From: an uncultured Candidatus Saccharibacteria bacterium
GTDB taxonomy: Bacteria > Patescibacteriota > Minisyncoccia > Minisyncoccales > Staskawiczbacteraceae
NCBI GenBank assembly: GCA_964424305.1
Contig: CAYRHW010000003.1
Location: forward strand, 4,895-68,894
DNA length: 64,000 nt
Reading direction: 5' to 3'
This document shows, in pieces, positions 1 to 48,228 of the stretch (within the stretch, counting starts at the first letter, position 1; each line of letters begins with the position of its first letter). A program made the translations under genes and the position numbers. A model generated the notes under the pieces. The model was not told the DNA's origin. It did no database searches and was given only the letters and a program-made list of their open reading frames with translations.

Positions 1-399
1 CGACACTCCAACACCGTGCAAGCCCCCAGATACCTGATAAGCCTTGCTGCCGAACTTACCACCAGCATGTAAAACCGTCATTACAGTTTCAAGTGTTGAT
101 TTTTTTGTTTGTGGGTGTTTTTCTACTGGGATCCCTCTACCATCATCGGAAACTCGGACTGTATCATTGGGTAGTAAAGTAACATCAATATTCTTACAAT
201 GCCCGGCCATCGCTTCGTCTAAACTGTTATCAACTATTTCCCAAATCAAATGGTGCAAACCATCTAATCCAGTGGAACCAATATACATAGCCGGTCTTTT
301 TCTTACGGCTTCAAGACCCTTTAGGACGTAGATGTCCTTGGCTGTGTATCCGCCATCGCTTTTAATTTCTTCCTTTGGGTTTTTTTCTTTTGCTACCAT
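1..399 (-). CDS. gyrB: DNA gyrase subunit B, N-terminal 133 codons (gene continues past the left edge)
   Basis: Not in the ORF track. My translation from the ATG at 399 gives [67 protein letters not shown]...[23 protein letters not shown], which shows GHKL ATPase/GyrB motifs. Confidence 0.9.
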
Positions 400-427: not shown

Positions 428-1570
428 TTATCTTATAACGGCGCTTAAATCCTGTTTTGTTTTTTCCCTGATTTCTTCTTGGATTTTATTTATCTCTTCG
501 TTGGTTAACGTTCTTTCTGGAGATCTATAGACAATCCGGAAGGTATAACTCTTCTTGTCTTTACCAAACTTCTCTTCATTCTCATAACTATCTACAAGTT
601 TCACCTCTTCGATTATATTCTCTGCGAAATCTCTAACGATCTCGTAATAATTATTCAAATTTATATTTTTATCTATAACAAATGAAATATCTCTTGAAGT
701 TTCTGGATATTTACTTACTTCTTTATATTTACTATTAATATCTTTAAATTGACTAGTAATCCTTGAATCTTCTGACCACAAAATTCTAATATCCGGTATA
801 GCCATTTTTATCATTGCTAGTCTGTCTCCGAATCCAAATGCCCATCCGTTATATATCTCAGGGTCAATTCCAAAAGTTTTTAAGCAAATAGGATTCACAA
901 GGCCGGCACCGTTTACTTCCAGCCAGTCTCCGTTAAACATAATATCCATTTCAAGGCTTTCCACCGTGTATGGGAAATTATCATCTAAAAATTTATATTC
1001 TATATCGTCGCCGAAAATTCCTTTTGCCAAATCTGCCTGAACCTCCTTCAAATCATTCTGCGTTATTATCTTTTGATCTTTCCTGCAAATTAATAATCCG
1101 TCGATTTGATGAAAAGCGGGGAAATGATGTCTGTCAATTTCATCTTTCCTATATACAATACCGGGCGCCAATGCCTGGATGTGCCCGTCAGTTTCCAGTC
1201 TTTTTAAAACATCCTCATCTTTTAAATAAAATGACCAAAAGGCAGTCATCTGAGTCCTTAGGAGATGATCCTTATCCAAATAATAAGTATCGGTTTCTCT
1301 CCTGCTGGAGTGATCCTTTGGGGTATTTAACAGATCAAAATCTTGCTCGGGTGTTATAATTTTTGGGAACTCAACAATATCAAAGTCCTTAAACCTTGGT
1401 AATTTGATAATTTGATCAAACAAAATTTTAACGGGAGAGTTTTCCTTTTTAGTCAGATCGGGAAGTTTCAGCAATCTCTTGATCCTTTCTGCCTTAATAT
1501 CACTCCTCTTCTCTATTTCCTTAATTAAAACGTCCTCTTCGGGATTGGTTATTATTATATTTTTTCCCAT
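428..1570 (-). CDS. pheS: Phenylalanine--tRNA ligase, single-chain form: PheS-type catalytic core fused to a C-terminal FDX-ACB-like domain
   Basis: Class II motif 2 (GIVYRKDEIDRHHFPAFHQIDGL) and motif 3 (GWAFGFGDRLAMIKMAIPDIR). The C-terminal SRDISFVIDKN...YTFRIVYRSPERTLTNEEIN resembles the PheT B8/FDX-ACB domain. Confidence 0.85.
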   Translation of the reverse strand: MGKNIIITNPEEDVLIKEIEKRSDIKAERIKRLLKLPDLTKKENSPVKILFDQIIKLPRFKDFDIVEFPKIITPEQDFDLLNTPKDHSSRRETDTYYLDKDHLLRTQMTAFWSFYLKDEDVLKRLETDGHIQALAPGIVYRKDEIDRHHFPAFHQIDGLLICRKDQKIITQNDLKEVQADLAKGIFGDDIEYKFLDDNFPYTVESLEMDIMFNGDWLEVNGAGLVNPICLKTFGIDPEIYNGWAFGFGDRLAMIKMAIPDIRILWSEDSRITSQFKDINSKYKEVSKYPETSRDISFVIDKNINLNNYYEIVRDFAENIIEEVKLVDSYENEEKFGKDKKSYTFRIVYRSPERTLTNEEINKIQEEIREKTKQDLSAVIR

Positions 1571-1670
1571 GATATTATTCTTCTATTTTACCCTAAAATT
1601 ACGTCCAAAGCAATAGCTAAATACACCCAAAAAGCTGCCTGATATGACAGCTTTTTATATTGCAAAATAC

Positions 1671-1988
1671 TCATTTTTTAACCCACTCTCTGGTAATCCA
1701 TTTCCTATATACCGCATCTTCTAAATCAATACCCAAAAGATGGGCGTTTACGATGAGCATACCCAAAACATCTGCTAATTCCTTTGCGAGTTCTTTCTTT
1801 GATTCCTCCTTCGAAACATGCTTTTCCGGCCTACTCTTCTTTCTATGGATTAAAACTGCCTGAGATAATTCCCCCACTTCTTCATATAATTTGAATAACG
1901 CAAAATCTTCATCAATCTTTATATTATACCTCTCGCCATACTTCATGGCGTTTTCTACAACTTTTTTCTGAAGTTCTTTGAAATCCAT
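1671..1988 (-). CDS. MazG-like all-alpha NTP pyrophosphohydrolase (small)
   Basis: 105 aa with the EEVGELSQAV...ELADVLGMLI metal-binding helix pair typical of the MazG/NTP-PPase fold. Hairpin terminator at 1629-1656. Confidence 0.7.
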   Translation of the reverse strand: MDFKELQKKVVENAMKYGERYNIKIDEDFALFKLYEEVGELSQAVLIHRKKSRPEKHVSKEESKKELAKELADVLGMLIVNAHLLGIDLEDAVYRKWITREWVKK

Positions 1989-2024: not shown

Positions 2025-3290
2025 CTAATTTACTCCTCCAGCGCCCTTCCCGGCTAAATACCCAGTACTCCAGCAGGCTTGTAAATTAAAACCGCCAGTC
2101 TTGCCATCTATATCAATAATCTCTCCTGCAAAGTATAGATTGTCGATTATTCTCGACTTCATTGTTTTCCCATCTATTTCTTTAAGTGGAACTCCTCCGC
2201 TTGTAACCATAGCGGAATCAAAACCCAACAACTCGGTTGCGGTAACTCCTACTTGTTTCAGTAACTTTGCAATACTCACCCTCTCACTCTTAATTATATT
2301 ATTCGTTGGTTTTTCACCCCCTATCCCGATGACTTGCATAAAAATTGGGACAAGTTTCTGGGGCATGAGATCTGCCAAAAAATTCTTAACCGATATCTTC
2401 GGATTTTGGACGATCTTTTCATTAATCTTTTTTAAAAGTTCCTCGGCATTTAGGGTTGGATAGAAATCTATGCAAACTATTACCTCTCCCTTTTTTAGTA
2501 ACTCCCCTACTCTTTTGCTGACATTCAAAATTGCCGGGCCACTTAATCCAAAATGGGTGAATAAAACGTCTCCCACCCCCTGTAGTTGTTTTTTATTATT
2601 CTGGGCAACAGTTACCCCTACTTCCCTTAAAGACAACCCCTGCAAGTCTTTTACCCAATCCTCTTTTACTTTTATTGGCACAAGGGCCGGAGAAGGGCTT
2701 ACCACGCCGTGCCCCATATTTTTTAACCACTTCGTGCCATCTCCAGTAGACCCAGTTGTTGGATAAGAATTACCACCAATACAAAAAATGTATTTTTTAG
2801 CAACTACCTCCTTCCCTCCTACAACTATGTTTTTTATTTTCTTGTCTTTTAAAATGACGTTGGAAACCGGAGATTCTAAAAAGACATTAATTTTATTCTT
2901 TAATAAACATTTATTTAACACTTCCCGAACATCCCCGGCATTTCCAGACAAAGGAAAAACCCTGTTACCTCCCTCTACCTTTGTTTTAATCCCAAGCTTC
3001 TCAAAAAAACTAATAACTTCTTTCGGACCAAAAACAGAGAAAGCATGGAAAAGGAATTCTCCTCCCCTACTATAATTATCAACTAATTTTCTAAGATTGA
3101 ATTCTGCGTTAGTTAAATTACACCTACCATTGCCAGTTAAGAGAAGCTTCTTCCCAAGCTCCTTATTCTTCTCTAATAATACAACCCGAGCGCCAGCCTC
3201 TGCCGCCGTAATAGCTGCCATCATCCCAGCTGGGCCTCCACCGATTACTGCCACATCAAAAATCTTTTTTTCTGTTTTCATAACTTTCAT
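2025..3290 (-). CDS. FAD-dependent oxidoreductase, HI0933/BaiN-like flavoprotein family
   Basis: N-terminal dinucleotide fold DVAVIGGGPAGMMAAITAAEAG. The C-terminal FAGEIIDIDGKTGGFNLQACWSTGYLAG is typical of the HI0933 family. Confidence 0.8.
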   Translation of the reverse strand: MKVMKTEKKIFDVAVIGGGPAGMMAAITAAEAGARVVLLEKNKELGKKLLLTGNGRCNLTNAEFNLRKLVDNYSRGGEFLFHAFSVFGPKEVISFFEKLGIKTKVEGGNRVFPLSGNAGDVREVLNKCLLKNKINVFLESPVSNVILKDKKIKNIVVGGKEVVAKKYIFCIGGNSYPTTGSTGDGTKWLKNMGHGVVSPSPALVPIKVKEDWVKDLQGLSLREVGVTVAQNNKKQLQGVGDVLFTHFGLSGPAILNVSKRVGELLKKGEVIVCIDFYPTLNAEELLKKINEKIVQNPKISVKNFLADLMPQKLVPIFMQVIGIGGEKPTNNIIKSERVSIAKLLKQVGVTATELLGFDSAMVTSGGVPLKEIDGKTMKSRIIDNLYFAGEIIDIDGKTGGFNLQACWSTGYLAGKGAGGVN

Positions 3291-3359
3291 TAGTTTAACA
3301 CCTTATTTAGCTTGGTGTAAATAAAAAATCGCTAAAAAGCGACCAGCCCACCCTTGCTA

Positions 3360-5093
3360 CTATACGGGGACAGTAAAGTAGAAAGTACTTCCCTCCCCCT
3401 CGACAGAACCCACGCCGGTTACCCCCTGATGGGATTCTATAATCCCCTTAACTATTGCTAGACCCAGCCCAGTCCCCTGTTTCTTAATAAATGTGTCCTT
3501 CACTTGGGAAAATTTGTTAAAGAGTTGGCTTATCTCCATGCTTGGGATCCCCCGCCCGTCATCGGTGACCGCAATAACCAAAGAATCTGCTAAATTATTG
3601 AAACTTTCTGATTGCTCATTAAAGAACCAGACCATCTTCTCTGTTTTCACCTCTTCTTTTATGTCTTTACCATTTTTGTGGAATAAGACGTCCACACTAA
3701 CTTTCCCATCCTTCTTAGAAAACTTAATGGCATTAGAGATAAGATTATTTAAAACCTGAGAAATTGTGAAATAATCAAAGTTAACTTTCTCTGGTAGATT
3801 ACTCCCAAGATGTTTTACTAATTTGATTCCGGAATCTTGAGCTAATGTATTTAGGAACCCAACACACTCATCGATAAGTTGTTTAATATCAGATGGCTGC
3901 TTCTGAATTTGGAACTTCCCAGCTTCTATCTTCGCAACGTCTAAAAGGTTATTGATCAATTCCAGCATGTCGGTAGATTTTTTATACATCATCTGGAAAT
4001 ATTCCATCTGCTCTGATTTCTTTTGCTTATTTGATCTAATAAACTCGACCATCTTTTTAATGGTGCCCAATGGAGATCTCAGCTCGTGGACTATCATTGA
4101 AGTAAAATCTTCTCTCATTCTCTCAATTTCCTTTTCTCGAGTCATATCTCTAAAAATCACGATGCAACCCAAAACCTCTTTTTGTAGTCCGACTGTCCCC
4201 TCAACCGGAGAGACGATGATACGATAAAACTTATCTTGTAGTAAAATTTCATCGGAAGAAAAAGTTTTCCCTATTTTAATACTTTCTTCTATCTTCTCTC
4301 TAAAATTAAACTTCTCGCCTAGCTTATCAACAAAATCAAAAACAGATAATTCTTTTTTATCTGCCAACCCAATGGCACTCTTCGCAGCCGGATTAACAAC
4401 TACAATCCTATAGTCCTTATCTGTCATGACAACACCCTCTATCATACTTTCCACCATTGCATTTAGTTTCCCCTCCTCGATGCCAATGACCTCCTGCAAC
4501 CGAGTGACAGCCTGGGAAGCTTGCTGTGTTATTTTATATAGGATCGTCATTTCTTCTTCCTTATACAGTCCACTCTTTGTATCCGTAATGGTTAGAACGC
4601 CGACTAACTTACCTGCGATAACTAAAGGAATGTTAAAAAATGAACGGACCGGCTCGTCAATATTTTCGGATAAGATTGCCCCCGATAGAATTTCTTCTAT
4701 TCTTATCTTTTTGAAATCGTTATTTAGAAGTGCGGAAAGAGAACCGATCATCCTTGCCTTAATATCGTCTATGAACTTTCTTGAGACTGACTCCTCAAGA
4801 TGAACCTTAAACACTATTTTCTCTGGTTCAATGAACATATATGATACGGCACTATACCCAATAAACTGGTGCAGGGAACCAGTAATGATATCTATTATGT
4901 TCTGCACATTTAGAGAATATCCTATCCTGTCACCAAGTTCCTTTAAGATAGAAAGCTCGTACATTCTCCGTTTTGTGCTTTCCTCCCTCTTAATCAGACT
5001 CTCTTGCAAATTCCGGCTTTTTATATAAACAAAAAAAGCACTGACAACAGCAAGAAGAGCAATCGAGTAAGATACGATTATAGAAACTGCCAT
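3360..5093 (-). CDS. Sensor histidine kinase (TM anchor, GAF-like, PAS-like, HisKA, HATPase_c)
   Basis: H-box FTSMIVHELRSPL, N-box LNNLISNAIKFS and G-boxes DDGRGI / GTGLGLAIVKGI. The N-terminus is hydrophobic. Confidence 0.9.
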   Translation of the reverse strand: MAVSIIVSYSIALLAVVSAFFVYIKSRNLQESLIKREESTKRRMYELSILKELGDRIGYSLNVQNIIDIITGSLHQFIGYSAVSYMFIEPEKIVFKVHLEESVSRKFIDDIKARMIGSLSALLNNDFKKIRIEEILSGAILSENIDEPVRSFFNIPLVIAGKLVGVLTITDTKSGLYKEEEMTILYKITQQASQAVTRLQEVIGIEEGKLNAMVESMIEGVVMTDKDYRIVVVNPAAKSAIGLADKKELSVFDFVDKLGEKFNFREKIEESIKIGKTFSSDEILLQDKFYRIIVSPVEGTVGLQKEVLGCIVIFRDMTREKEIERMREDFTSMIVHELRSPLGTIKKMVEFIRSNKQKKSEQMEYFQMMYKKSTDMLELINNLLDVAKIEAGKFQIQKQPSDIKQLIDECVGFLNTLAQDSGIKLVKHLGSNLPEKVNFDYFTISQVLNNLISNAIKFSKKDGKVSVDVLFHKNGKDIKEEVKTEKMVWFFNEQSESFNNLADSLVIAVTDDGRGIPSMEISQLFNKFSQVKDTFIKKQGTGLGLAIVKGIIESHQGVTGVGSVEGEGSTFYFTVPV

Positions 5094-5112
5094 TACAAAA
5101 ACTGACTATGAA

Positions 5113-5442
5113 TTACTTACCGGTTAATTTTTCAGTTTCCTTCCTAGCGTCTTCGAGAACCTTAAGGGTTAAAAGAAACACGACAAACCAAACAAGAAAA
5201 ACTGGCAGACCCAGATAGATACCTCTTTCGTCAACAAGCATAAGAACTGTGGTCACTATCCCCAAACTATACATTTCTACTAGAATTGTTAAAACTAAAA
5301 CCTTCGTAAGTTTACCAATCAATGACCCCTTAACCAACCTGTAAACACTACTTCCTTTTACGAAAAGATAGATACTTCCAGCAATCAAAACTGGCCACCC
5401 TATAATTAGTATTAAATTTCTTATCATAATTAAATATTGCAT
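5113..5442 (-). CDS. Small integral membrane protein, unknown function
   Basis: 109 aa with about 3 hydrophobic spans. Lies between the kinase and the regulator. Confidence 0.5.
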   Translation of the reverse strand: MQYLIMIRNLILIIGWPVLIAGSIYLFVKGSSVYRLVKGSLIGKLTKVLVLTILVEMYSLGIVTTVLMLVDERGIYLGLPVFLVWFVVFLLTLKVLEDARKETEKLTGK

Positions 5443-5447
5443 AATAA

Positions 5448-5717
5448 CTATTCAACTTTTTTAATTTGTGGATACTTTGTAAAGATCGAGCTTAATGCGC
5501 TCTTAACGATCATACCCGATAGTTCCACGTAGGTATCAATTAATTTCTCAACAGCTTCGGCTGGATCGCCGTTAATGCCGGTGACCTTACCCGAATCATC
5601 TACGGTTAAACCAGCTACATTTCTCGCCTTTAGTATCGCGATGTCTGGGCCTAGAATAACGGCCTGCTTTCCGATAATTTCTGTTAATAATCCTAAATAT
5701 TGAGCTTTATCGTCCAT
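5448..5717 (-). CDS. Hypothetical soluble protein (89 aa)
   Basis: ORF in an operon position between the response regulator and the membrane protein. No motif recognised. Confidence 0.45.
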   Translation of the reverse strand: MDDKAQYLGLLTEIIGKQAVILGPDIAILKARNVAGLTVDDSGKVTGINGDPAEAVEKLIDTYVELSGMIVKSALSSIFTKYPQIKKVE

Positions 5718-5754
5718 TTTATTTAAATATTAAATTATTAATGCGACCTTTTAA

Positions 5755-6138
5755 TTAGATTCCTGTTTCTAATTTTTGTTTCACTCTTTTCGCCAATTCT
5801 TCTGCGCTCCAAGTAGATTTAACTAAATAATCATAAGCGCCGGTTGCCAGGAAATCTGCCATCGTTCTTTCGCCAGTTAAATTAGTCAATATGATAATAT
5901 TTGCATTTTTACCCCATTTATCTTTCCTCAACTCCATAACCATTTCCATCCCGTTCATAATTGGCATCATGACGTCAACTAAGAGCAAATCCGGATGCTC
6001 CCTAAGCGCTATTTCTAGACCTTCCTTACCGTTCTCTGCCTCAAAAATAGTATACTTCTCTTTTTTAAGGGTATCGACGTTGACACGCCTAGACGCTGCA
6101 TCATCTTCCACTATTAAAATCTTTTTATTTATCTCCAT
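5755..6138 (-). CDS. Single-domain response regulator (CheY-like receiver)
   Basis: The patterns ILIVEDD...LLLVDVMMP...ILT...K show the receiver acidic pocket and phospho-acceptor Asp context. Confidence 0.9.
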   Translation of the reverse strand: MEINKKILIVEDDAASRRVNVDTLKKEKYTIFEAENGKEGLEIALREHPDLLLVDVMMPIMNGMEMVMELRKDKWGKNANIIILTNLTGERTMADFLATGAYDYLVKSTWSAEELAKRVKQKLETGI

Positions 6139-6236
6139 AATTAAAAATTATAAATTTTGATTTTCATCTATATTTTACCATAAATTTGAAAAGCAAGATA
6201 TAATTTTATCCACAATATTAACCAACTTTTTGTCAA

Positions 6237-6262
6237 CAAAAAAACCCACGATGTTATCGGGG
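6237..6262 (-). terminator. Rho-independent terminator after the 6269-6553 gene
   Basis: The minus strand reads CCCCGATAACATCGTGGG followed by TTTTTTT. Confidence 0.6.
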
Positions 6263-6268
6263 CTTCAT

Positions 6269-6553: not shown

Positions 6554-6593
6554 CGCTACTCCCTTCGGTCTGTTAAAGATCCGCGAAAAATAC

Positions 6594-6622
6594 ATACTAA
6601 CAGAACGTAACATAAATGTCAA
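6594..6622 (-). promoter_or_regulatory. Sigma70-type promoter (TTGACA, 17-nt spacer, TAGTAT)
   Basis: Read on the minus strand: -35 at 6622-6617 and -10 at 6599-6594. Confidence 0.55.
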
Positions 6623-6711
6623 TAATTGATAGCAACAAAAAAGCTCGGCGGGACTTCGCAGAGCCTAGGTCTATTCTACTATCAAACAATCGACCGCCGA
6701 TAAAACCCAAA

Positions 6712-11169: not shown

Positions 11170-12255
11170 TTAATGTGCCGACAATACTCGCCAACACTGA
11201 GGATCAGGCGCAAAGAAATTGCCACCCGAAGCTCCGAATGACACGGCTGGACAACCACGACAATAGCACAGAAGCGGGCACTTAGAGCATGCCTCAAACT
11301 TGGCGATGTCGCGGTACTGGTCCATTCTTTCGGATGTAAAGATTTCCAAGATACTTTGATCGGGCACCTTGCCGATTGGACTATTAAATCGTCTACAGGC
11401 AAATACTGTGCCGTCGGCCAGGATGGCTACATCCCTTGCGCCGATATGGCATCCTGAGACTACCTGGCCGTCGGGATTGACCGACGGATGGAATTTCCCC
11501 TGCTCGTACATGAGAAGCGTCCACAAATGATCCTTGAGAGTAAAGGTGGTTTTCGAACCCTTTGCTTTGAGCTCGGCAACCAAGTCCTGGACTCGCAACA
11601 AAAGATCTCTATACCCCAGAGGGGTTAACATCGCTTCTGCTGGTGAAATCTTAGCAGCGATTCCTGGGCTACTAGACAGCCGTGCGAAAGCAAAGGCGCC
11701 CACGCCCAATTTGTCTACCAACCTCATCGCGTCGAGGAGATCCCCACTGTTTTTCTTGCTAAGGGTGTACATCACCACCGCTCTCATCTTACATTCGACG
11801 AGGAGCTTGATGGCGGCAACTGTCGCAGAAAAACTTCCGGATTTCCTCAGGGAATTGTGCATCTCCTCCATTCCGTCGAGACTCACCTGGTAGCTGACAA
11901 CCCCGAGACTCTTCATCTTGGCGATGTTATCGGCGGTAAGGTGGAATGGATTTCCCATGACACACAGCTTAATGCCTCGACTCGATGCGTACTCCAGAAT
12001 CTCGAAAAAATCGGAACGCAAGAGGGGGTCTCCGCCGGTGAAATTGATCTTGGGATTCGCCCCTGCTGTTTCACAAAAATCAACGAAGGAATCGATCACT
12101 GCCTTGCAGCTGTCTAGAGAAAGCTCTTCTGCAAGCTCACGTCTATATGAAACCGGGTCGTTAACCATGTAACAGTGCAGACACGACTGATCGCAGTGAG
12201 CAGTAATGTGCCATTGGATCACGAAAAGTGGCAATTTATCCTTATCGCGTGTCAT
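11170..12255 (-). CDS. Radical SAM enzyme with C-terminal SPASM (twitch/auxiliary Fe-S) domain; putative peptide-modifying maturase
   Basis: CX3CX2C at residues 21/25/28 (CDQSCLHC) and the GGDPLL SAM motif. SPASM-like elements are CHIGARDVAILADGTVFAC (CX12GX4C), CSKCPLLCYCRGC and DPQCW. There is no N-terminal RRE-sized extension. Confidence 0.85.
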   Translation of the reverse strand: MTRDKDKLPLFVIQWHITAHCDQSCLHCYMVNDPVSYRRELAEELSLDSCKAVIDSFVDFCETAGANPKINFTGGDPLLRSDFFEILEYASSRGIKLCVMGNPFHLTADNIAKMKSLGVVSYQVSLDGMEEMHNSLRKSGSFSATVAAIKLLVECKMRAVVMYTLSKKNSGDLLDAMRLVDKLGVGAFAFARLSSSPGIAAKISPAEAMLTPLGYRDLLLRVQDLVAELKAKGSKTTFTLKDHLWTLLMYEQGKFHPSVNPDGQVVSGCHIGARDVAILADGTVFACRRFNSPIGKVPDQSILEIFTSERMDQYRDIAKFEACSKCPLLCYCRGCPAVSFGASGGNFFAPDPQCWRVLSAH

Positions 12256-18919: not shown

Positions 18920-18997
18920 TGGCGCGGGTGACGGGATTTGAACCCGTGATCTGATCCGTGACAGGGATCCGAGGACTCCAGACTCCTCCACACCCGC
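18920..18997 (-). tRNA. tRNA-Asp (anticodon GTC), CCA encoded
   Basis: Hand-folded cloverleaf: acceptor GCGGGTG/CACCCGC, D stem GAGG/CCTC, anticodon arm GATCC-CTGTCAC-GGATC, T arm ACGGG-TTCAAAT-CCCGT, then GCCA. Confidence 0.9.
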
Positions 18998-19680: not shown

Positions 19681-19682
19681 AG

Positions 19683-19755
19683 TGCCGGCGACAGGGATCG
19701 GACCTGTGACCTTGCGCTTATGAAACGCATGCTACTACCACTGAGCTACGCCGGC
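19683..19755 (-). tRNA. tRNA with CAT anticodon (elongator Met or Ile2 type), no encoded CCA
   Basis: Acceptor GCCGGCG/CGCCGGC, anticodon arm TGCGT-TTCATAA-GCGCA, T arm ACAGG-TCCGATC-CCTGT. Position 55 is C, which is unusual. Confidence 0.75.
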
Positions 19756-19762
19756 TTACTTG

Positions 19763-19833
19763 TTGCGCCGCCCCGAATTGCACGGGGGCCCACAGCTTAT
19801 GAGACTGTTGAGGTACTACTCCTCCACGGCGCT
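19763..19833 (-). tRNA. Atypical tRNA-like gene with CAT anticodon (possible initiator-like or degenerate tRNA)
   Basis: Acceptor AGCGCCG/CGGCGCA (A1 opposite A72), D stem GAGG/CCTC, anticodon arm ACAGT-CTCATAA-GCTGT, T arm CCCCG-TGCAATT-CGGGG with a non-canonical loop. Confidence 0.5.
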
Positions 19834-25600: not shown

Positions 25601-25950
25601 TCCTAGTAAGCTAGACGATCGCTCTTTTTTAAAGAGAGGAAAGTCCGAACACCATCTCCGCTTTCCGCGGGATAAAATTGTAGCGGCTAACGGCCGTCCA
25701 CAGCAATGTGCGAGGTGCGAACAGAAACGGCTATGATCGAAAGATCTGGCATTCCAGCAATGGAATACTTCTACAGTAATGTAGGAATGAAACGGCTAAA
25801 TCCTTACAGGGCGCAAGAGCAAAGCAGAAATTCAGGTTAAATACATCTTGAATATCTGTTAAAAGTAGTTCGCCAGAGCCAGCAAGTAATTGCTAGCCCA
25901 GACAGATGATCGTCCCAGACAGAATTCGGCTTATCGGCTTGCTAGGACAT
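25601..25950 (+). ncRNA. rnpB: RNase P RNA, bacterial type A
   Basis: Conserved GAGGAAAGTCCG (P4 5' strand) and ACAGAATTCGGCTTATCGG (P4 3' strand). P1 pairs TCCTAGTAAGC with GCTTGCTAGGA. Confidence 0.95.
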
Positions 25951-31052: not shown

Positions 31053-32951
31053 TTAGAATTTTACCACTTCCCCCGGATTAATTACACCCCTTTTTGAGCC
31101 ATCATTGGAGACTTTCTCTGGGATTGGAACTGGCTCCTTCTCTACGACGGGGTTAGGGTTATTATTTATATTTTTCTTAGCAGGCTCTGGTTTATCATTT
31201 TCTTCGGCCAATGATTCTTTTATGGCCTTTCGCAGCTCCGAGACATCAACCTCTTTCCTCTTCACCTTATCTTTATCATGACTATCTCTGTGGGGAGAGA
31301 AAGAAACCACCTCCTGATGCATCGCTTCTCTCAAAGACACTGCCGGGGGTTTTATATCTTGCCTCACCTCCTGCTTTTCTACATGGGCTTCCGGACGAAC
31401 TTCAGACGTGATCTTTTCGGCAGTAGTAACTCCATCCTGCGGTTTCCCACTAGCAACAGGGGCCACTACTTCACTTCGAGGCTTCACTTTCTTCAAACAA
31501 TTTTTACAATATATTGGCCTACCCTTCTCTGGCTCAAAAATTACTTTAGTCTTCTTATTACACATGGAACAAACGGCATCGAAAAGATGCGATTGTTCCT
31601 GCCCCCCGAAGCCTCCCTGCATTACTGGCCTCGGTGTATTCCCCTGCGAAGTTGCAGATAATGTATGCTCTGCATTGTCTTCAAAGCCAGTCCAACGTTT
31701 TATCTTTTCCTCTACTATTTCTTTCCTTACTCCGTATCTCTCTCTACTTGCATTAATGATCTTTTCTCTGTTTGAAGTCTCTTCTGCTTTAATGGGAGGA
31801 AGGGTTTCTGCTGAAAACGGCCGGCCAGCAACTCCATCGATCATTAATTTTAAATATATATTGTATTTTGTAAGGCCAACCAAATCCGTGGCCATAAACT
31901 CTGGCTCAAATTCTCTTTCTAGAAAATCAGCATCCTCTGCACCAATTCTAAAAACCACCATTGTCCCCACATTACCAAATACTGCGTCCCTCACTTCCTC
32001 TTCCATTTGAGTGATATATTGATGTCCCAGCGTCAGGTTCAAACGATATTTTCTTGCCTCGGACAATATGGAGGCAAAGGATATAGTTGCAAAGTTCTGG
32101 AACTCATCGACGTAAAGATAGAAATCTTTTCTATCTTCTTCGGGGATATCAACCCGGGACATGGCGGCTAATTGCATTTTTGTAATTAACAAAGCTCCCA
32201 ATAATCTGGAATTATCCTCTCCGATCCTACCTTTCGATAGGTTGATTATTAATATCTTGCCCTCATCCATTATTTTCCTAATATCGAGAGTGGACTTTAC
32301 CTGCCCGATACTATTTCTGATCAAAGGATTGGAAACGAACTGCCCTACTTTATTCTGAATAGCGGCTGTTGCTTCAACCTCGTATTTCTGAGTATACCTG
32401 GCATATTCATTCACCCAGAAAGATTTAACAACTGGGTCAGTGATCTTTTCCACCACCTTTCCCCTATACTCTGGGTCAGCCAACATTCTGTTAACCCCAA
32501 GCAAAGTTGACTCTGGATATTCCAAAAGCGCCAAGATAGAGTTATTCAAAATATATTCCATACGGGCGGACCAAACATCAGGCCAAACTTTTTTGAAAAC
32601 AGCCATCAACCCACTAGCCACTAAATGCCTGAATCTGAAATCCACCTTTTCCATAACGTTAAAGGCGATTGGGAAATCAAGATCCGCTGGGTTGAAATAC
32701 ACAACATCATTTATTCTGCTAGAAGGAACGAAGTCCAACAAGCCCTCGGCAGCTTCTCCGTGGGGGTCGACGAATGCAATACCTCTTCCTTTTTGGATAT
32801 CCTGCCTGGCCATATTTTCCATTAGGACGGTTTTGCCCATACCAGTTTTCCCAATAACGTAAACGTGCCGACGTCTATCGTCGGGCTTTATACCAAATTT
32901 CTTCTCCTGGTTGCGAAAGGTTGTTTTCCCTAAAAATGTTATCTCTGCCAT
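31053..32951 (-). CDS. TraD/VirD4 (type IV coupling protein)-like P-loop ATPase with C-terminal zinc ribbon and low-complexity tail
   Basis: Walker A IGKTGMGKT and Walker B LYVDEFQNF. C-terminal CSMCNKKTKVIFEPEKGRPIYCKNC (CxxC...CxxC). Confidence 0.65.
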   Translation of the reverse strand: MAEITFLGKTTFRNQEKKFGIKPDDRRRHVYVIGKTGMGKTVLMENMARQDIQKGRGIAFVDPHGEAAEGLLDFVPSSRINDVVYFNPADLDFPIAFNVMEKVDFRFRHLVASGLMAVFKKVWPDVWSARMEYILNNSILALLEYPESTLLGVNRMLADPEYRGKVVEKITDPVVKSFWVNEYARYTQKYEVEATAAIQNKVGQFVSNPLIRNSIGQVKSTLDIRKIMDEGKILIINLSKGRIGEDNSRLLGALLITKMQLAAMSRVDIPEEDRKDFYLYVDEFQNFATISFASILSEARKYRLNLTLGHQYITQMEEEVRDAVFGNVGTMVVFRIGAEDADFLEREFEPEFMATDLVGLTKYNIYLKLMIDGVAGRPFSAETLPPIKAEETSNREKIINASRERYGVRKEIVEEKIKRWTGFEDNAEHTLSATSQGNTPRPVMQGGFGGQEQSHLFDAVCSMCNKKTKVIFEPEKGRPIYCKNCLKKVKPRSEVVAPVASGKPQDGVTTAEKITSEVRPEAHVEKQEVRQDIKPPAVSLREAMHQEVVSFSPHRDSHDKDKVKRKEVDVSELRKAIKESLAEENDKPEPAKKNINNNPNPVVEKEPVPIPEKVSNDGSKRGVINPGEVVKF

Positions 32952-32974: not shown

Positions 32975-34369
32975 TTACTCCATTGGTAAATTAGGCGGTG
33001 GTCCACCCTTCTTGGCCTCGACACGAACAACCGTAGAGGCTATTAAAGCTGTGATCCTCGTTGGGAAATGATACATTGTTGCCAACTCCTCACTGTTTAA
33101 TATGGAGCTTCCTGGCAAATCCCACCTTGGAAAAAACGGGGGGAATCTATTGATATAGTGCTCGAGCATTTTCCTTTGCCTGACAAGAAGCCTTTTCTTT
33201 CTCATAAAGAAGTGCACCTTTGTCCTCGTGTCGGCATTAAACTTAAAGTGATTCATATTCTGCGTATGGAAATGCGGCAAATAGGACTCAATGGTTTTTC
33301 TGTGGCCCGAATCCCACTTTTCTCTCTTGGCTATATACACTCCCCTTATGGTTGTCTTCCAGGCAGACTTTTCCATTTTTTCTTCTACGGCCATAAGAAC
33401 CCCTCTTTCTCCGGGGGTCAACAACATTTCCCTTTCATTGCTCTCTGTTTTTGTTTCCGATAAAGATTTTGCTGCTCCTTTCTCATCAGAGCCAGCCGAA
33501 CCAGTAAATCCAGCAAAAAGCTCTTTAAACATCTGGAACAATAAATCGATTAATGTTTCCTTTTTATCCTCCGGTCTTTTTGCAATCTGGCTAATTAATT
33601 TCTTCCCCTCTTCTCTCCACGGGAAATCATGATCTGAAATGGGGATAGTAACCATCTGAAACCAAAGTTGTTCTCCGGGCCCCAATCTTGCCATGCCCTC
33701 CAACAAAGAAACGATTGGGTCGATTCTTTTTTCTTCTTGAGAAATTTTTTCACCGCCTATTTCAAAAAACTTTGAGAAAGTTTTAATAGGATAAGCGTCT
33801 TCCTTGCCCAAGATAAATTCCGTACCATATATGTTCCACTCCTTATTGGGAATATTTTGAGGAACATTTTTTGTGTAATCTGAAACTTGTGTTATCTCCA
33901 CTTCTGGATAATGAGAGTACAATGCTGACTCGACAAGTGAGCGATGGCCGGACATACAGCGGATGTAGAAATGGATAGATCCCTCGACGCTGGCTACTTC
34001 CCAAGAAAGCCATTCTGGGCATGTTTCAAACTCTCCCTCACACCACCTTTCTCTCCAGTTGGCGGTATCAATGATTGTCCAAACAGCAGAGAACACATCT
34101 TCCATGGCCTTAAAAGGAGCCAGACTTTCCTTTGGGGGAACAAGTTCAAGAATTACCCATTTTTTCTTTTGATACCAAAAGTCCCACCTGATCCACCATA
34201 AATAGTAGGTCTCTAGTGGGAATACCAAAAGGATGGGGATTATTAGCCACCACCAGACATTAATTACGGGAATAAAAAAAACGGCAATCGATAAAATCAA
34301 CCACCAGAATGGGGTCCAAATTATTTTTCTGGGAACGTCCAGCCACCAAAAGAAAGACTTAGCATTCAT
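32975..34369 (-). CDS. Membrane protein, unknown function (partner of the T4CP-like ATPase)
   Basis: Trp-rich N-terminal TM hairpin and a large soluble domain. A 24-nt gap separates it from the ATPase gene. Confidence 0.5.
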   Translation of the reverse strand: MNAKSFFWWLDVPRKIIWTPFWWLILSIAVFFIPVINVWWWLIIPILLVFPLETYYLWWIRWDFWYQKKKWVILELVPPKESLAPFKAMEDVFSAVWTIIDTANWRERWCEGEFETCPEWLSWEVASVEGSIHFYIRCMSGHRSLVESALYSHYPEVEITQVSDYTKNVPQNIPNKEWNIYGTEFILGKEDAYPIKTFSKFFEIGGEKISQEEKRIDPIVSLLEGMARLGPGEQLWFQMVTIPISDHDFPWREEGKKLISQIAKRPEDKKETLIDLLFQMFKELFAGFTGSAGSDEKGAAKSLSETKTESNEREMLLTPGERGVLMAVEEKMEKSAWKTTIRGVYIAKREKWDSGHRKTIESYLPHFHTQNMNHFKFNADTRTKVHFFMRKKRLLVRQRKMLEHYINRFPPFFPRWDLPGSSILNSEELATMYHFPTRITALIASTVVRVEAKKGGPPPNLPME

Positions 34370-42446: not shown

Positions 42447-45089
42447 TTAATCTCTCCTAAACCCCTGTATCATCCTGGCGATGCCAAGGAGGACAAGGAT
42501 AATGATTATGATGATGAGGAATAAGTATAAAGGGTTGGAGAGGTTGAGACCGAGTAATCCGGCTAAACCTTGCTGTGGCACAAAGACTGTACCACCATTA
42601 TTGTTGTTGGTATCAGTTCTGTTCAAAATGACCGTGGCTGTGTCCTGAGAAGAACCAGCAGAAGTAGTAACTGTGGCTAGGGTGCTAGCTTCATTGCCGA
42701 ATATGGAGTTGTTTTCTACTACCTGAGCTTTGTAGGTTATGGTTCTAGTAGACTTTGGAGCTAAAGATCCTAGGGTTATCCCTGCTCTAACATCTCCTGA
42801 ATAATCATTACCATCTAACTTTAAACCTCCTTTGTATAATACTTCTGAAGGTAAGTTGGCTTTTACGAAAACATCATTCATTGTGGTGTCTAAACCATTG
42901 CTGACAACCAATAGATAGTCTAGGTTCTGACTGGCATTGGCTGAAAAGGATTTTGTCCATTGGACAGGATCATTCTCTCTCTTTCCAAAGATAGTGACAG
43001 CTAAACCGATTACATTACAATCTTGAGCACAGGATTGGATTGTTTCACCTTCACTACAGGTTCCATCTCCACAAACAGTACATTGAGATATATATTCTGG
43101 AGATCCTTTGGCACAGGTGGTGCCATCACATTTAAGTAAGTTGGTACAAGTGGTTCCATTACAGGAATCGAAGGTACAAGTATTACTGTCTTGGCAAGAT
43201 CTGTATAGGTTTAATCTGACATTGGTTGAACCACTAAACCAGTAGATATCATTGTTGTAACAACCTCTGTAGTTTGTAGACACTGGTGGGATTACTGGTG
43301 GGATGTATGTAGTCACGCAATAACCACCCTGGCAAGTTTGGTTAGATAAACATGTTTGGATTAAACCTTGCCTGGTGTTGTAGGTATCAAACCAGTAAAC
43401 ACTGTTGTTGTAGCAACCTCTGTGATCGTTGTAGTTAATTGTGTTTACACAGTAACCATTCTGACATGTTTGGTTGTAGGCACAGGTTTGAACAAGCTGG
43501 GCATTGTTGTTCCCGGTATTGTAACAAGCACCGTTAGAACAGCCTCCATTAGAATAACCCTGGCGGTAAACACTGTTACCTATGCAGTAGTTGGCTCCAT
43601 TATTGTAATTGTTGTTGGTACAAGTTTGAAATAATTCTTGTCTAACACCAGCCGAGTTGTACCAGTAGACATTGTTATCATAGCACTGAGTGTATGAATG
43701 GTTTATGGTTGAATCAACACAAGCTCCATTCTGACAAGTCTGGTCATAGGTACAATCTTGGTAGATGTCGTTTCTGGTATTGTTTGAGTCAAACCAGTAA
43801 ACATCGTTGTTGTAGCATGCTTTGTGATCATGATTTAAAATCATATTCACACAGACTCCGTTTTCACAGTTCTGGTTAACAGTACAATCTTGGTACAAAT
43901 CATTCCTAGTATTGCTTGAACTAAACCAGTAAACATCGTTGTTGTAGCATGCTCTGTGGTCGTGATTGATGGTAATGTCTATGCACTCGCCATTAACACA
44001 GTTCTGGTTAACAGTACAATCTTGGTACAAATCATTCCTAGTATTGCTTGAACTAAACCAGTAAACATCGTTGTTGTAGCATGCTCTGTGGTCGTGATTG
44101 ATAACATTGGTCACACACTCGCCGTTAACACAGGTTTGGTTGGCAGTACAATCTTGGTATAGATCATTTCTTGTGTTGGTGGAACTAAACCAGTAGACAT
44201 CGTTGTTGTAGCATGCTCTGTGGTCGTGGTTGATGGTAATGTCTATGCACTCGCCATTAACACAGTTCTGGTTAACAGTACAATCTTGGTACAAATCATT
44301 CCTAGTATTGCTTGAACTAAACCAGTAAACATCGTTGTTGTAGCATGCTCTGTGGTCGTGATTGATAACATTGGTCACACACTCGCCGTTAACACAGGTT
44401 TGGTTGGCAGTACAATCTTGGTATAGATCATTTCTTGTGTTGGTGGAACTAAACCAGTAGACATCGTCATTGTAACAAGCTCGGTGGTCGTGGTTGATAA
44501 TTGGCTGGGTGATGGCGTAAAAGATCTTCATCTTATCCTCGTTTACACTGGTTGTACTACAAAGTGTCCCCGAGCTTCCACTCCAAGTGAATTGATCATT
44601 CCCAGGATTACTGCCCCTATCATTTCCCTCGATGACACCACAGGTCCCACTCGGATCCTCATAGTTTATATTCTGGATATTCGTGATCGAAGCATTGGAA
44701 AAACTAAAACTTGCCCTCACGGTTTCCCTGGTGCTTTCGCCACCAAATCCATATGCCGTGATTTGGACATACCCATTCTTCCTTATCACATGTAAACCAG
44801 CGACATTATCAGTTGAATCACCGTCAATTACTGCCGATCCATTAACAACCAAGGGGATGGAAACGCTTCCTGTTCCGAAGACAGCTGAGTCGGTCCCTAC
44901 AAAAATATTATTACTCATATTTGGAATATGGGAAGCGCTAGTCGGGGAATAGTTACCGGTATAATTTACGGTAAGAGTAAGCGAAACATCCCCAGCGGTA
45001 GCAGAGACTACTCCAGGGGTCGATAATGTTATTAGAATAACTGACACCATGAAAATGAAAACGCATTTACTTTTTATTTTTGTGATCAT
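42447..45089 (-). CDS. Large secreted, C-terminally anchored surface protein with about 9 Cys-rich 44-aa tandem modules
   Basis: Signal peptide, then repeats of INHDHRACYNNDVYWFSS.NTRNDLYQDCT.NQ.C.NGEC. A beta-rich domain and a C-terminal TM plus basic tail (LGIARMIQGFRRD) follow. Confidence 0.85.
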   Translation of the reverse strand: MITKIKSKCVFIFMVSVILITLSTPGVVSATAGDVSLTLTVNYTGNYSPTSASHIPNMSNNIFVGTDSAVFGTGSVSIPLVVNGSAVIDGDSTDNVAGLHVIRKNGYVQITAYGFGGESTRETVRASFSFSNASITNIQNINYEDPSGTCGVIEGNDRGSNPGNDQFTWSGSSGTLCSTTSVNEDKMKIFYAITQPIINHDHRACYNDDVYWFSSTNTRNDLYQDCTANQTCVNGECVTNVINHDHRACYNNDVYWFSSSNTRNDLYQDCTVNQNCVNGECIDITINHDHRACYNNDVYWFSSTNTRNDLYQDCTANQTCVNGECVTNVINHDHRACYNNDVYWFSSSNTRNDLYQDCTVNQNCVNGECIDITINHDHRACYNNDVYWFSSSNTRNDLYQDCTVNQNCENGVCVNMILNHDHKACYNNDVYWFDSNNTRNDIYQDCTYDQTCQNGACVDSTINHSYTQCYDNNVYWYNSAGVRQELFQTCTNNNYNNGANYCIGNSVYRQGYSNGGCSNGACYNTGNNNAQLVQTCAYNQTCQNGYCVNTINYNDHRGCYNNSVYWFDTYNTRQGLIQTCLSNQTCQGGYCVTTYIPPVIPPVSTNYRGCYNNDIYWFSGSTNVRLNLYRSCQDSNTCTFDSCNGTTCTNLLKCDGTTCAKGSPEYISQCTVCGDGTCSEGETIQSCAQDCNVIGLAVTIFGKRENDPVQWTKSFSANASQNLDYLLVVSNGLDTTMNDVFVKANLPSEVLYKGGLKLDGNDYSGDVRAGITLGSLAPKSTRTITYKAQVVENNSIFGNEASTLATVTTSAGSSQDTATVILNRTDTNNNNGGTVFVPQQGLAGLLGLNLSNPLYLFLIIIIIILVLLGIARMIQGFRRD
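43250..44505 (-). repeat. Coding tandem repeat, 132-nt period (about 9 units; the five units at 43789-44448 are near-identical)
   Basis: The unit landmark CTAAACCAGTA recurs at 43921, 44053, 44185, 44317 and 44449. The units at 43921 and 44185 differ at 2 of 132 nt, and 44053 and 44317 look identical, giving a 264-nt super-repeat. Confidence 0.9.
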
Positions 45090-46641: not shown

Positions 46642-48228
46642 TCATTTTGCCAATAACAGATTCAACTGAGCCCTTGTCCCATTGCCAACAAAACCCGTAA
46701 CAGCTATGGGGTAACCGGCTGTCTGAGAAATTTGGGATCTGTATTTATTCTGGAAACATTTTACTGCCGCCAGGGTCTGAACCCCAAAATAGTTTGTATT
46801 TGCAACACCGGACAAACATCCTTCGGATGCCAACATATATTTTAAATAAATGACGTCTTGAGTTTTTGCTCCAAAGGCTAAGTTTCTTACAAGACTAAAT
46901 CCCGCCGGAATACTATTAGACGTTACCGTTTGTCCCGTGCCCGAAGCAGAAACAGTAAAGGTAAAAGAACGAGATGGTTCGTTGTCTCCAAAATCTGACG
47001 TCTTAGCCTGGGTAGACGGCATAATAATTAAAGCCGTATTCTCAGTACCAAAATTTTGAACACTTATTTCTCCCCTTGAATTAACTAAATTCAAGAAATT
47101 CACAGTATAGCTTCCATTGTTTTTTTGTACTAAATAGGGAATTTTAAAACTGGTACCACTATTACTTGAAAAAGAAAGCTTAACGCTTCCCTTGCCTCCA
47201 ATTATTTTAAACCAATTCCCCGCCCAATCTTTCGTTATATCTGTAACGCTTAAAATACTTTGCCCCGACAGTGGAAGAAAATTAATTTTTGGATAAACAT
47301 GCAAATCCTTGAGATTGTTATTTAGATAACAATAACTTGCACCAAAATTACAATCATTAATATAAACGGCAATCATCCAATCAGTAAAAATTTGCGCAAA
47401 ATTTTTAATTGATCCCTCTTTATTCAAAGCATAATTAATACTCTCTATCCCAACCTTTGAATTTCGCAAGGAATCAACCAAAACTTCTTTCCCATAATAA
47501 TCAACCAAATATTGGGTAAAAAGACTTACAACTCCATAATCAGCTTTCGACCCCTTCCAATCGGTAATTGAGTCAAATGGCTCATCTGAAAAAACCTGTG
47601 CCCTATTTTGGAGATAACTTCCAGAAAAAATATTATCATATCCCAAAAGAGTGGGCGCATACTCTGCCCTCGCTTCGTTAAGCCAAGTATCTTCTTCGGC
47701 ACCATAAATTTTATTCTTTTGATTAAAAGTAACTAAATGAGTAAATTCATGTGCCAGAAAGCTCGGGGCATTCGTGTCTTTCAGTCTCGCAGCACTTAAA
47801 TACACCATCTCTCTTTCGTTGGACCCAGGAACCTGCAATTTAGTGTATTCATCATTTGAACGAAAATAACCACCAGCGTCTTTCGCCATAGAATGTATGA
47901 GGATAGTAACCTTGATGTCTTTATCTATCCCTGGAGTCCACTCCGAACCATAACTAGCTACAAGGCCGGGATAGATCTTGTTATCAAACTCATCCCCCAG
48001 CAATCCTAGTGCTGCAGAAATCTCGTTTTGAGGAGCAAAATTCCACCAACTCTCATCAACATAAAAATATGCTTTTGAGCTAATTTTTAATAAAACAGCA
48101 TCTACAGTATTTCTCTTACTTGCATCATAACTAGAATCTACGTAAAAATTTCTTTTTTCGCCTAAATTATCTGCGCTTACCAATAATGGGAAGAAAATAA
48201 GGCAAACAACAATAACAATTTTTTTCAT
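46642..48228 (-). CDS. Secreted zinc metalloprotease-like protein with C-terminal peptidoglycan-binding domain
   Basis: Signal peptide and HExxH (LAHEFTHLV). C-terminal PG_binding_1-like DVIYLKYMLASEGCL...FGVQTLAAVKCFQ. Confidence 0.65.
   Translation of the reverse strand: MKKIVIVVCLIFFPLLVSADNLGEKRNFYVDSSYDASKRNTVDAVLLKISSKAYFYVDESWWNFAPQNEISAALGLLGDEFDNKIYPGLVASYGSEWTPGIDKDIKVTILIHSMAKDAGGYFRSNDEYTKLQVPGSNEREMVYLSAARLKDTNAPSFLAHEFTHLVTFNQKNKIYGAEEDTWLNEARAEYAPTLLGYDNIFSGSYLQNRAQVFSDEPFDSITDWKGSKADYGVVSLFTQYLVDYYGKEVLVDSLRNSKVGIESINYALNKEGSIKNFAQIFTDWMIAVYINDCNFGASYCYLNNNLKDLHVYPKINFLPLSGQSILSVTDITKDWAGNWFKIIGGKGSVKLSFSSNSGTSFKIPYLVQKNNGSYTVNFLNLVNSRGEISVQNFGTENTALIIMPSTQAKTSDFGDNEPSRSFTFTVSASGTGQTVTSNSIPAGFSLVRNLAFGAKTQDVIYLKYMLASEGCLSGVANTNYFGVQTLAAVKCFQNKYRSQISQTAGYPIAVTGFVGNGTRAQLNLLLAK

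Follow-up and report, generated by a model that had tools for sequence, protein, structure and literature searches.

On the reverse strand of the window, i.e., the whole 64,000-nucleotide stretch of contig CAYRHW010000003.1 analyzed here, positions 428..1570 encode a 380-aa protein in which the catalytic core of the alpha subunit (PheS) of phenylalanyl-tRNA synthetase (PheRS) is joined in one chain to the C-terminal B8 domain of the beta subunit (PheT). The most likely reading of this gene, to which a probability of roughly 0.8 can be attached, is that it codes for the organism's sole PheRS, a single-chain and editing-less enzyme of mitochondrial-type architecture. The host is an ultrasmall bacterium of the Candidate Phyla Radiation (CPR)/Patescibacteria, with a G+C content of 34-42% and matches to metagenome-assembled genomes (MAGs) of Nealson-, Staskawicz- and Pacebacteria. 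The architecture as such is already known; what is new is the domain of life of its host, the proposed role as sole PheRS, the in-place displacement of pheS-pheT, and the retention of a truncated beta subunit, termed here the mini-beta. The main reason for regarding the fused gene as the PheRS of these organisms, as opposed to an extra paralog, is that it replaces pheS-pheT in the same chromosomal slot.

The open reading frame (ORF) starts with an ATG and ends in a stop codon at 428-430, and an identical protein is present on ENA contig k141_378670. The gene and its parts are as follows:

428..1570, reverse strand: the single-chain PheRS gene (catalytic core plus B8), stop included (ORF list; Pfam PF01409 and PF03147; AlphaFold pLDDT 97.1)
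1457..1570, reverse strand: residues 1-38, a short two-helix N-terminal extension with helices at 10-20 and 25-34 (no PF02912 match; model)
746..1456, reverse strand: residues 39-275, the class IIc catalytic module (PF01409, 173 bits; invariant columns; motif table against other families)
716..745, reverse strand: residues 276-285, the linker (hinge) from the core to the anticodon-binding domain (gap between both Pfam matches)
431..715, reverse strand: residues 286-380, the ferredoxin-fold anticodon-binding (FDX-ACB, B8) domain (PF03147, 93.2 bits, profile positions 1-94 of 94)

Pfam profiles delineate the two domains clearly, with PF01409 (tRNA-synt_2d) recovered at E 1e-50 against a cut-off of 19.8 bits, and PF03147 (FDX-ACB) at E 1.4e-26 over its full length, its score being three times the curated cut-off of 31.1 bits. 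An earlier interpretation made from the letters alone (the sequence-only reading) had proposed just such a C-terminal FDX-ACB domain, and the profile scan bears this out. It had also noted the lack of the N-terminal coiled coil of PheS; indeed, PF02912 is not detected in the window protein by the Pfam scan, though it is detected in canonical CPR PheS (locus L090), and the 38-residue extension stands in place of the approximately 85-aa coiled coil of bacterial PheS. The same scan gave no match to the B3/4 editing domain (PF03483), and the chain is devoid of B3/4, B5 and B6/7. The B8 domain additionally matches positions 691-798 of the bacterial PheT model (TIGR00472, pheT_bact), and PheT chains in the PDB match residues ~281-380, while bacterial PheS chains match only residues ~46-276. 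The top PDB match by sequence is human mitochondrial PheRS (E 5e-55), which aligns across both domains.

Inspection of the catalytic module reveals DHSSR at residues 86-90, R141, H154-Q155-x-D157, FPYT at 199-202, and GWAFGFGDRL at 242-251 with A244 and R250. The class II motif 2 (GIVYRKDEIDRHHFPAFHQIDG, residues 137-158) and motif 3 (GWAFGFGDRLAM, residues 242-253), both of which the sequence-only reading had recognized, are present and invariant in the family. So are DH(P/S)SR, the motif 2 arginine R141, H154-Q155, FP(Y/F)T, the specificity alanine A244 of GWAFG, and the motif 3 arginine R250. The family deviates from PheRS in having FPY for FPF in most members and FHQIDG for FHQxEG, and in a motif 3 loop that is one residue shorter.

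The predicted fold agrees with this assignment. An AlphaFold model built from a 121-sequence alignment reaches a mean predicted local distance difference test score (pLDDT) of 97.1 and a predicted template modeling score (pTM) of 0.92; it was used in place of a model from a 10-sequence alignment (pLDDT 57), which was set aside. In Foldseek comparisons, six human mitochondrial PheRS structures rank first (8p8x/3cmq/5mgw; TM 0.78-0.82, rmsd 3.0-4.0 Å, ~390-405 columns), whereas the bacterial PheS chains align over the core only (TM ~0.55). The TM-score is about 0.8 against the apo mitochondrial enzyme as opposed to 0.59 against its open, tRNA-bound form (3TUP), and hence the model represents the mitochondrial enzyme's closed, apo-like state.

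Whether both PheRS systems occur together was judged by comparative gene order around the loci. Canonical-type loci display the order SecA-SecD-SecF-..-tyrS-pheS-pheT-valS, while in the Moranbacteria-type relatives that carry the fused gene it is SecA-SecD-SecF-..-tyrS-mini-beta-fused-valS. A canonical locus (L090) with pheS (350 aa, with the PF02912 coiled coil) followed by pheT comes from a genome close to the fused-type genomes (SecA 72-74%, SecD 68-70%, SecF 70-82% identical), and has in common with them a SecA-SecD-SecF-small ORF block leading into the slot. A metagenome scan with its PheS recovered at least 490 contigs, from which 80 loci (0.9 Mb) were kept. The closest comparison is that of L076 (fused) with L127 (canonical), which are collinear over ~20 kb and differ only in the PheRS cassette: SecD is 91%, SecF 87%, an 86-aa ORF 83%, a 952-aa protein 86%, ValRS 74%, and the downstream genes 86-94% identical. 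Between the 86-aa ORF and valS, L127 has pheS and an 846-aa pheT, whereas L076 has the mini-beta and the fused gene, the core of which is only 29% identical to the PheS of L127.

This same-slot replacement is accompanied by mutual exclusivity at the level of the locus: none of the 164 loci (83 fused-type and 81 canonical-type, ~2.2 Mb) holds both systems. The fused gene (n=83) is followed by gyrB in 43 loci and by valS in 14, and preceded by tyrS in 14 and by the mini-beta in 15; the canonical pheS (n=81) is followed by pheT in 58 loci and preceded by tyrS in 21, with valS downstream in 24. No PheT and no second PheS was found in the 1.39 Mb around the fused gene (87 loci, of which 83 are fused-type), and no ORF bearing B3_4/B5 occurs in any fused-type locus, nor a B3_4-like ORF in the window or in the locus record of its contig (L001). 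A list of PheT matches likewise has no contig or locus tag in common with the fused-gene lists; that search, seeded with L088, landed in Falkow-/Kuenenbacteria and has low power for Paceibacteria, and it was used only as a negative overlap check. Among the canonical loci, some irregularities were seen: in L156 a surplus 3' fragment of pheS occurs and pheT has shifted by ~5 kb in the downstream direction (5137-5391, 8399-8683), and in L109 pheT is broken into two overlapping ORFs (4972-7406). These could be frameshifts or decay in progress.

In the genome of interest itself, a phmmer search of the six-frame ORFs of the window and of a further 9.5 kb of its contig (73.5 kb in all) found no second PheS-like and no PheT-like ORF. 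The queries were the two domains of the protein and E. coli PheT; the latter was validated solely by its expected matches on B8, the mini-beta and CPR PheT. Its sole match in the 73.5 kb is the FDX-ACB domain of the window gene, which serves as a positive control. The ten largest ORFs of the window include SecA, LepA, MurJ, SecD and a VirD4-like ATPase, and PheT is not among them. On the favored reading, pheT would be absent from this genome altogether.

The family is widespread. A 90%-clustered protein database contains 4029 homologs at E<=1e-10, drawn from independent NCBI, JGI, ENA and Logan assemblies, and the best 120 of them range from 378 to 387 aa in length and from 78 to 100% in identity. 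Close relatives are encoded in at least 142 GTDB species representatives of the Parcubacteria/Paceibacteria, the best 80 of which show 61-84% identity; their MAG labels include Nealson-, Staskawicz-, Wildermuth-, Moran-, Taylor-, Ryan-, Wolfe- and Jorgensenbacteria as well as Paceibacteria, and one relative resides on a closed 876-kb chromosome (OY969557.1). Copies that are 75-84% identical are found in typical CPR gene contexts (L008, L013, L014, L016, L018, L021, L023, L028, L036 and others) in MAGs labeled 'uncultured Candidatus Saccharibacteria', 'Bdellovibrionales' or 'Gammaproteobacteria', which are probably wrong taxonomic labels.

Conservation was gauged by median pairwise identities within the same sets of genomes. 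By this measure the fused PheRS stands at 73% against 63% for GyrB, 75% against 49% for TyrRS, 74% against 60% for ValRS, and 72% against 71% for SecF. The canonical PheS of related CPR genomes shows a like pattern, with 69% against 54% for ValRS, 65% against 49% for TyrRS, and 64% against 71% for SecF. As the two patterns match, the fused protein is conserved as expected of the catalytic chain of an essential synthetase.

These observations allow a mechanism to be proposed. The class II core would activate phenylalanine with ATP and transfer it to tRNA-Phe, while the covalently attached B8 domain would supply the recognition of the anticodon (GAA) that is normally given by the beta subunit. 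By analogy with human mitochondrial PheRS (PMC3275996; 3CMQ, 3TUP), B8 may swing off the core on the hinge upon tRNA binding. Since the chain has no B3/4 domain, Tyr-tRNA-Phe would not be cleared in cis, and accuracy would have to rest on the synthetic site, where the altered pocket positions Y201 and D157, together with the shortened loop of motif 3, may adjust how well phenylalanine is told apart from tyrosine. The mini-beta, where present, may add non-specific tRNA affinity in trans. The sequence-only reading had envisaged a monomeric, editing-deficient PheRS, and this proposal is supported, both attributes being predicted from the architecture; Phe-tRNA-Phe activity and the hinge mechanism are likewise suggested by likeness to the characterized enzymes.

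The presence of the mini-beta raises the first of the rival explanations, namely that the fused protein is the catalytic chain of a multi-component PheRS with an obligate mini-beta and possibly an editing factor acting in trans, and is thus neither monomeric nor editing-deficient. The mini-beta is a 140-170-aa ORF, immediately upstream of the fused gene in 15 of the 80-83 fused-type loci, which matches the PheT N-terminus with E-values down to 1e-33, contains only the Pfam tRNA_bind domain, and begins with MKYNYNWLKN like PheT. Its 1732 homologs, mostly 130-170 aa long, lie on the same contigs as the fused gene, and a ratio of nonsynonymous to synonymous substitution rates (dN/dS) of 0.12-0.19 in five pairs indicates purifying selection. 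Some sources name its members 'YtpR family tRNA-binding protein' or 'EMAP domain-containing protein', and like the free-standing PF01588 proteins Trbp111, CsaA and YtpR it is a small, separately encoded OB-fold tRNA-binding protein. However, on account of its PheT N-terminal signature, its 54-78% identity to the PheT N-termini of relatives, and its position where pheT was, it is better understood as a truncated pheT than as a member of those families; in L076 it is 77% identical to residues 50-180 of the L127 PheT.

The fused enzyme may therefore not always act alone, at least in the part of the clade that has this neighbor. Further, pheT is recurrently split in another CPR class (relatives of Falkow-/Kuenenbacteria) into a B1-B2 ORF of ~160-245 aa and an adjacent body of ~570-600 aa, which shows that B1-B2 is able to work as a separate polypeptide. 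In L088, for example, B1-B2 occupies 2463-3198 and a 564-aa B3/4-B5-B6/7-B8 protein 3209-4903; other cases are P0416, P0435, P0453, P0455, P0497 and P0521, with P0435 and P0381 on one 10,667-bp contig. Against an obligate partnership, no mini-beta was found in either the window or L001, nor in the +/-10 kb surroundings of 65 of 80 fused-type loci, all the gyrB-linked ones included, and no fused-type locus has an ORF with B3/4. Moreover, work by Roy & Ibba in 2006 is said to show that aminoacylation in E. coli does not require B2. The domain is missing altogether from many PheT proteins of canonical CPR loci. Versions of this kind in L113, L123, L128, L129, L132, L133, L135, L141, L142, L159, L164, L166 and L170 align to PheT over residues 1-~40 and resume at ~155, in agreement with Mukai 2017 (PMC5370408). 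A multi-component enzyme is accordingly regarded as unlikely.

The second rival explanation, held to be slightly less probable still, is that the protein is a ligase paralogous to PheS but non-canonical in function, acting on another amino acid or acceptor or in regulation in the manner of SrmL, with pheS-pheT encoded elsewhere. Several points weigh against the sole-PheRS interpretation, and some of them favor this paralog explanation. The best NCBIfam match by E-value is SrmL (NF051887, PheS-related mystery ligase), a family with the same core plus FDX-ACB layout and similar length, which shows that proteins of this layout can have roles other than that of a PheRS. The window protein falls under every curated PheRS cut-off, scoring 235.8 bits with TIGR00469 (pheS_mito; cut-off 258.35) and 159.9 bits with TIGR00468 (bacterial PheS; cut-off 237.45). 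NCBI calls the family members 'hypothetical protein', while JGI has "phenylalanyl-tRNA synthetase alpha chain". The FPY and FHQIDG variants and the shortened motif 3 loop could shift specificity. In the gyrB-linked sub-lineage to which the window belongs, the gene lies outside the tyrS/valS slot, with no mini-beta nearby, and for this reason the synteny argument, which is direct for the Moranbacteria-type relatives, reaches the window genome only through 80-84% identity. Finally, the gene content considered spans 73.5 kb of this genome and, in the closed OY969557.1, +/-10 kb, so that a pheS-pheT pair outside these stretches, though improbable, is conceivable.

The broader family sheds light on these points. 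An exhaustive search over 1.84 billion cluster representatives returned 211 representatives (E<=1e-30), and the core plus FDX-ACB architecture is found in nearly every one of the top 120. These sort into four groups: the true SrmL; a prokaryotic/viral group of ~345-400 aa, which passes the TIGR00469 cut-off (260-308 bits, with the ~350-aa type at 283-308 bits); longer eukaryotic proteins that carry an insertion, with a fern protein as one named example; and the window family together with "near" proteins (P0121-P0126) at 41-48% identity. Of the latter, P0121 passes the TIGR00469 cut-off at 264 bits, one adjoins an ATP-synthase operon, and another is from an Oligoflexia MAG. The Oligoflexia protein (414 aa, 47% identical, annotated 'hypothetical protein'; L172 8001-9245, GCA_019694465.1) is from outside the CPR and sits in a non-housekeeping context in a genome where a canonical PheRS is expected, and could represent coexistence of the two systems or a different function; it thereby lends the paralog explanation some weight.

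However, the window protein is excluded from SrmL by its score (240.7 bits against a cut-off of 300) and by its retained NFPYT, FHQIDG and GWAFGFG motifs. The seven representatives of true SrmL score 359-446 bits; their motif 3 reads GLA(L/M)G, and they contain neither FPFT nor FHQxEG. Neighbor-joining trees, which are simple distance trees, are in line with this separation: in the tree of the core domain 180 of 200 bootstraps unite the window family with the "near" proteins in a clade distinct from the eukaryotic/viral-type group, while SrmL is a separate long branch. The window family groups with canonical CPR PheS in 0 of 200 bootstraps, and the phylogenetic comparison proposed with the sequence-only reading thus places it apart from both CPR PheS and the eukaryotic/viral-type sequences. 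As to the nearest canonical PheS representatives, P0197 is a eukaryotic fragment with Tra1 neighbors and P0267 belongs to a non-CPR diderm with Mla genes. A paralogous role is further at odds with the occupation of the pheS-pheT slot in near-identical genomes, the lack of any co-occurrence in the 164 loci, and a conservation exceeding that of GyrB; additionally, CPR genomes are small (876 kb in the closed one), and a redundant gene of this kind would be unlikely to persist in at least 142 species.

The third possibility, a chimeric ORF created by mis-assembly or a frameshift joining pheS to the pheT 3' end, has nothing but the unusual domain order to recommend it and is refuted by the uninterrupted 378-387-aa ORF in thousands of independent assemblies and 142 species representatives, as well as by a core that is ~30% identical to the resident CPR PheS without ever grouping with it, and by the high pLDDT (97) of the model.

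Returning to the interpretation as a sole single-chain PheRS, the displacement of pheS-pheT in the Parcubacteria/Paceibacteria looks recurrent, with lateral spread of the fused gene. The fused-type genomes are not monophyletic in trees of ValRS and TyrRS (0 of 200 bootstraps each) and are interleaved with canonical-type genomes; SecA identities agree. The mini-beta of L076 is nearest to the full PheT of a near relative (78%), with other mini-betas at 71% identity or less, and its fused protein is 91% identical to that of L072, the ValRS of which falls in another clade. The simplest sequence of events would have the single-chain gene spread laterally among the Paceibacteria and land beside pheT, followed by loss of pheS and of the B3-B8 part of pheT, with the 5' B1-B2 part kept as a selected gene; in the sub-lineage of the window, the gene would have moved next to gyrB. 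Differential loss from an ancestor carrying both systems is an alternative; none of the 24 canonical loci reaching valS has both systems. An in-place origin of the fused gene from the resident pheS and pheT was also considered and rejected as the main route, given a core ~30% identical to resident PheS and never grouping with it; CPR PheS is closer to a non-CPR PheS (38% identical) than the fused core is to resident PheS. The mini-beta, unlike the fused core, derives from resident pheT.

Comparison with known systems helps place the fused protein. The canonical (alpha-beta)2 PheRS of CPR (L090, L094, L122, L127) has a homologous core (~30%), a B8 domain that is 26-35% identical, and the same tyrS-valS slot, and presumably carries out the same reaction; it differs in being made of two subunits with the coiled coil, B3/4, B5 and B6/7, in place of one chain without these. 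Three forms of PheRS have been described, of which the heterotetrameric (alpha-beta)2 form is conserved in all known prokaryotes and is inactive as isolated alpha or beta subunits, whereas among class II synthetases only the mitochondrial enzyme is a monomer, one that is fully active without a beta subunit (PMC3275996). Mitochondrial PheRS (human FARS2, yeast MSF1; TIGR00469; structures 3CMQ, apo, and 3TUP, with tRNA) resembles the window protein in combining the PheS core and the PheT B8 in a single chain without the coiled coil, B1-B7 and an editing domain, and in having FPxT with the pocket threonine, HQ, and the specificity alanine of GWAFG. It differs by an insertion of ~30 residues in eukaryotic sequences (which split into two matched stretches), absent from the window protein, and by a targeting peptide where the window protein has its 38-residue helical N-terminus; conversely, in the window protein FPF is changed to FPY, aspartate takes the place of the glutamate in FHQxEG, and the motif 3 loop is short by one residue. 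Further, the host in the present case is a bacterium, in which the protein would be the only PheRS of the cell, and some lineages add a B1-B2 protein. The one precedent found for the displacement is offered by plastids: the monomer-type PheRS has displaced the two-subunit enzyme several times in diatom plastids and also in those of cryptophytes (PMC4494062). Both cases involve repeated, independent replacement of alpha/beta by a single chain followed by loss of the beta gene, although in plastids a nuclear-encoded mitochondrial enzyme was retargeted, whereas here the replacement took place inside bacterial chromosomes with signs of lateral transfer.

The sequence-only reading held the mitochondrial enzyme to be the only well-known PheRS with a core plus B8 fusion. 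This stands insofar as it is the only single-chain PheRS in the literature, but not for the databases, which also hold SrmL, viral and other bacterial fusions. A survey of full-text literature found no description of a bacterial or CPR single-chain PheRS or of SrmL, the matches to the latter name being unrelated acronyms. The only related remark is that many CPR PheT proteins are without B2 (Mukai 2017, PMC5370408); in Meheust 2019 (PMC6744442), PheRS is mentioned only as a clustering example.

Among viral contigs, an alignment-based scan of IMG/VR identified 49 (L173-L221) that encode a full-length core plus FDX-ACB PheRS of ~340-360 aa above the TIGR00469 cut-off; many are 200-540 kb long, several are labeled giant-virus MAGs (GVMAG), and one is 1.47 Mb. 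Single-protein scans of the viral contigs with the window protein and with P0277 gave no match, and the BFVD structure library contained no similar viral protein. A single-chain PheRS is also present among phage-type genes (phage metallopeptidase, PcfJ, SNF2 helicase) on a 340,874-bp ENA contig (L004 10001-11047). In the core tree the viral single-chain PheRS fall with the mitochondrial-type sequences of eukaryotes and not with the CPR family.

These relatives invite a bolder scenario, which is put forward tentatively and at well below even odds: single-chain PheRS, far from being a eukaryotic invention, might be an old, laterally mobile prokaryotic/viral enzyme that repeatedly overwrote pheS-pheT in CPR, leaving the B1-B2 stub, and that mitochondria acquired from such a donor, with a whole bacterial class translating without PheRS proofreading. 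In this scenario the ~350-aa relatives, encoded on viral contigs that resemble genomes of huge phages or giant viruses, would be the closest relatives of the mitochondrial enzyme outside the eukaryotes, and its acquisition would parallel that of the mitochondrial RNA polymerase and replicative helicase, which came from phage-like sources.

If the interpretation as sole PheRS holds, at least 142 species-level lineages of Parcubacteria/Paceibacteria would break the prokaryotic (alpha-beta)2 rule, and bacteria with a free-living or episymbiotic lifestyle would get by with no editing of Tyr-tRNA-Phe in cis, which bears on how much proofreading is needed. The origin of mitochondrial PheRS would become testable by phylogeny with bacterial and viral single-chain sequences. 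In practical terms, pheS and pheT serve as single-copy markers. With the fused gene annotated as 'hypothetical' by NCBI and scoring below the PheS/PheT marker cut-offs, pipelines for completeness and phylogenomics would be systematically blind to these markers in this class. The in-place replacement with a kept mini-beta would also constitute an unusually clean natural experiment in the swapping of synthetase architectures.

The genes adjoining the fused gene are as the sequence-only reading described them, i.e., gyrB and a MazG-like gene with no adjacent pheT:

1628..1657, reverse strand: terminator-like hairpin lying upstream of the PheRS gene and past the MazG-like gene (stem of 12 pairs with a run of T after it; consensus match only)
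1671..1988, reverse strand: upstream neighbor, a MazG-like NTP pyrophosphohydrolase of 105 aa (PF03819/PF12643)
1..399, reverse strand: downstream neighbor, the 5' part of gyrB, cut by the end of the window (sequence read; L001 gene table)

The hairpin suggests that the PheRS gene may begin its own transcription unit; promoter-like matches near the gene were none above chance. The position of the MazG-like gene is occupied by the mini-beta in other lineages. The gyrB start lies 28 nt past the PheRS stop codon, and this pairing is kept in 43 of 83 fused-type loci. The complete gyrB of the contig (L001 11172-14417, the first 399 nt of which correspond to window 1..399, reverse strand) codes for 1081 aa with an intein (PF14890, Intein_splicing), while its ortholog in L002 is intein-free at 692 aa.

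Elsewhere in the window, Pfam gives no match at E<=1e-5 for three large reverse-strand ORFs, namely 42447..45089 (880 aa), 46642..48228 (528 aa) and 32975..34369 (464 aa). The last of these adjoins a VirD4/TraG-like coupling ATPase (31053..32951) that carries a treble-clef zinc finger. A radical SAM/SPASM-domain gene (11170..12255, reverse strand) lies amid small unannotated ORFs and could be part of a peptide-maturation cluster. No tRNA-Phe gene is present in the 64-kb window, which carries genes for tRNA-Asp (18920..18997) and two adjacent tRNA-Met(CAT) (19682..19755, 19762..19833), all on the reverse strand. The RNase P RNA (bacterial class A, 121 bits) is encoded at 25603..25949 on the forward strand, opposite to nearly all genes of the window.

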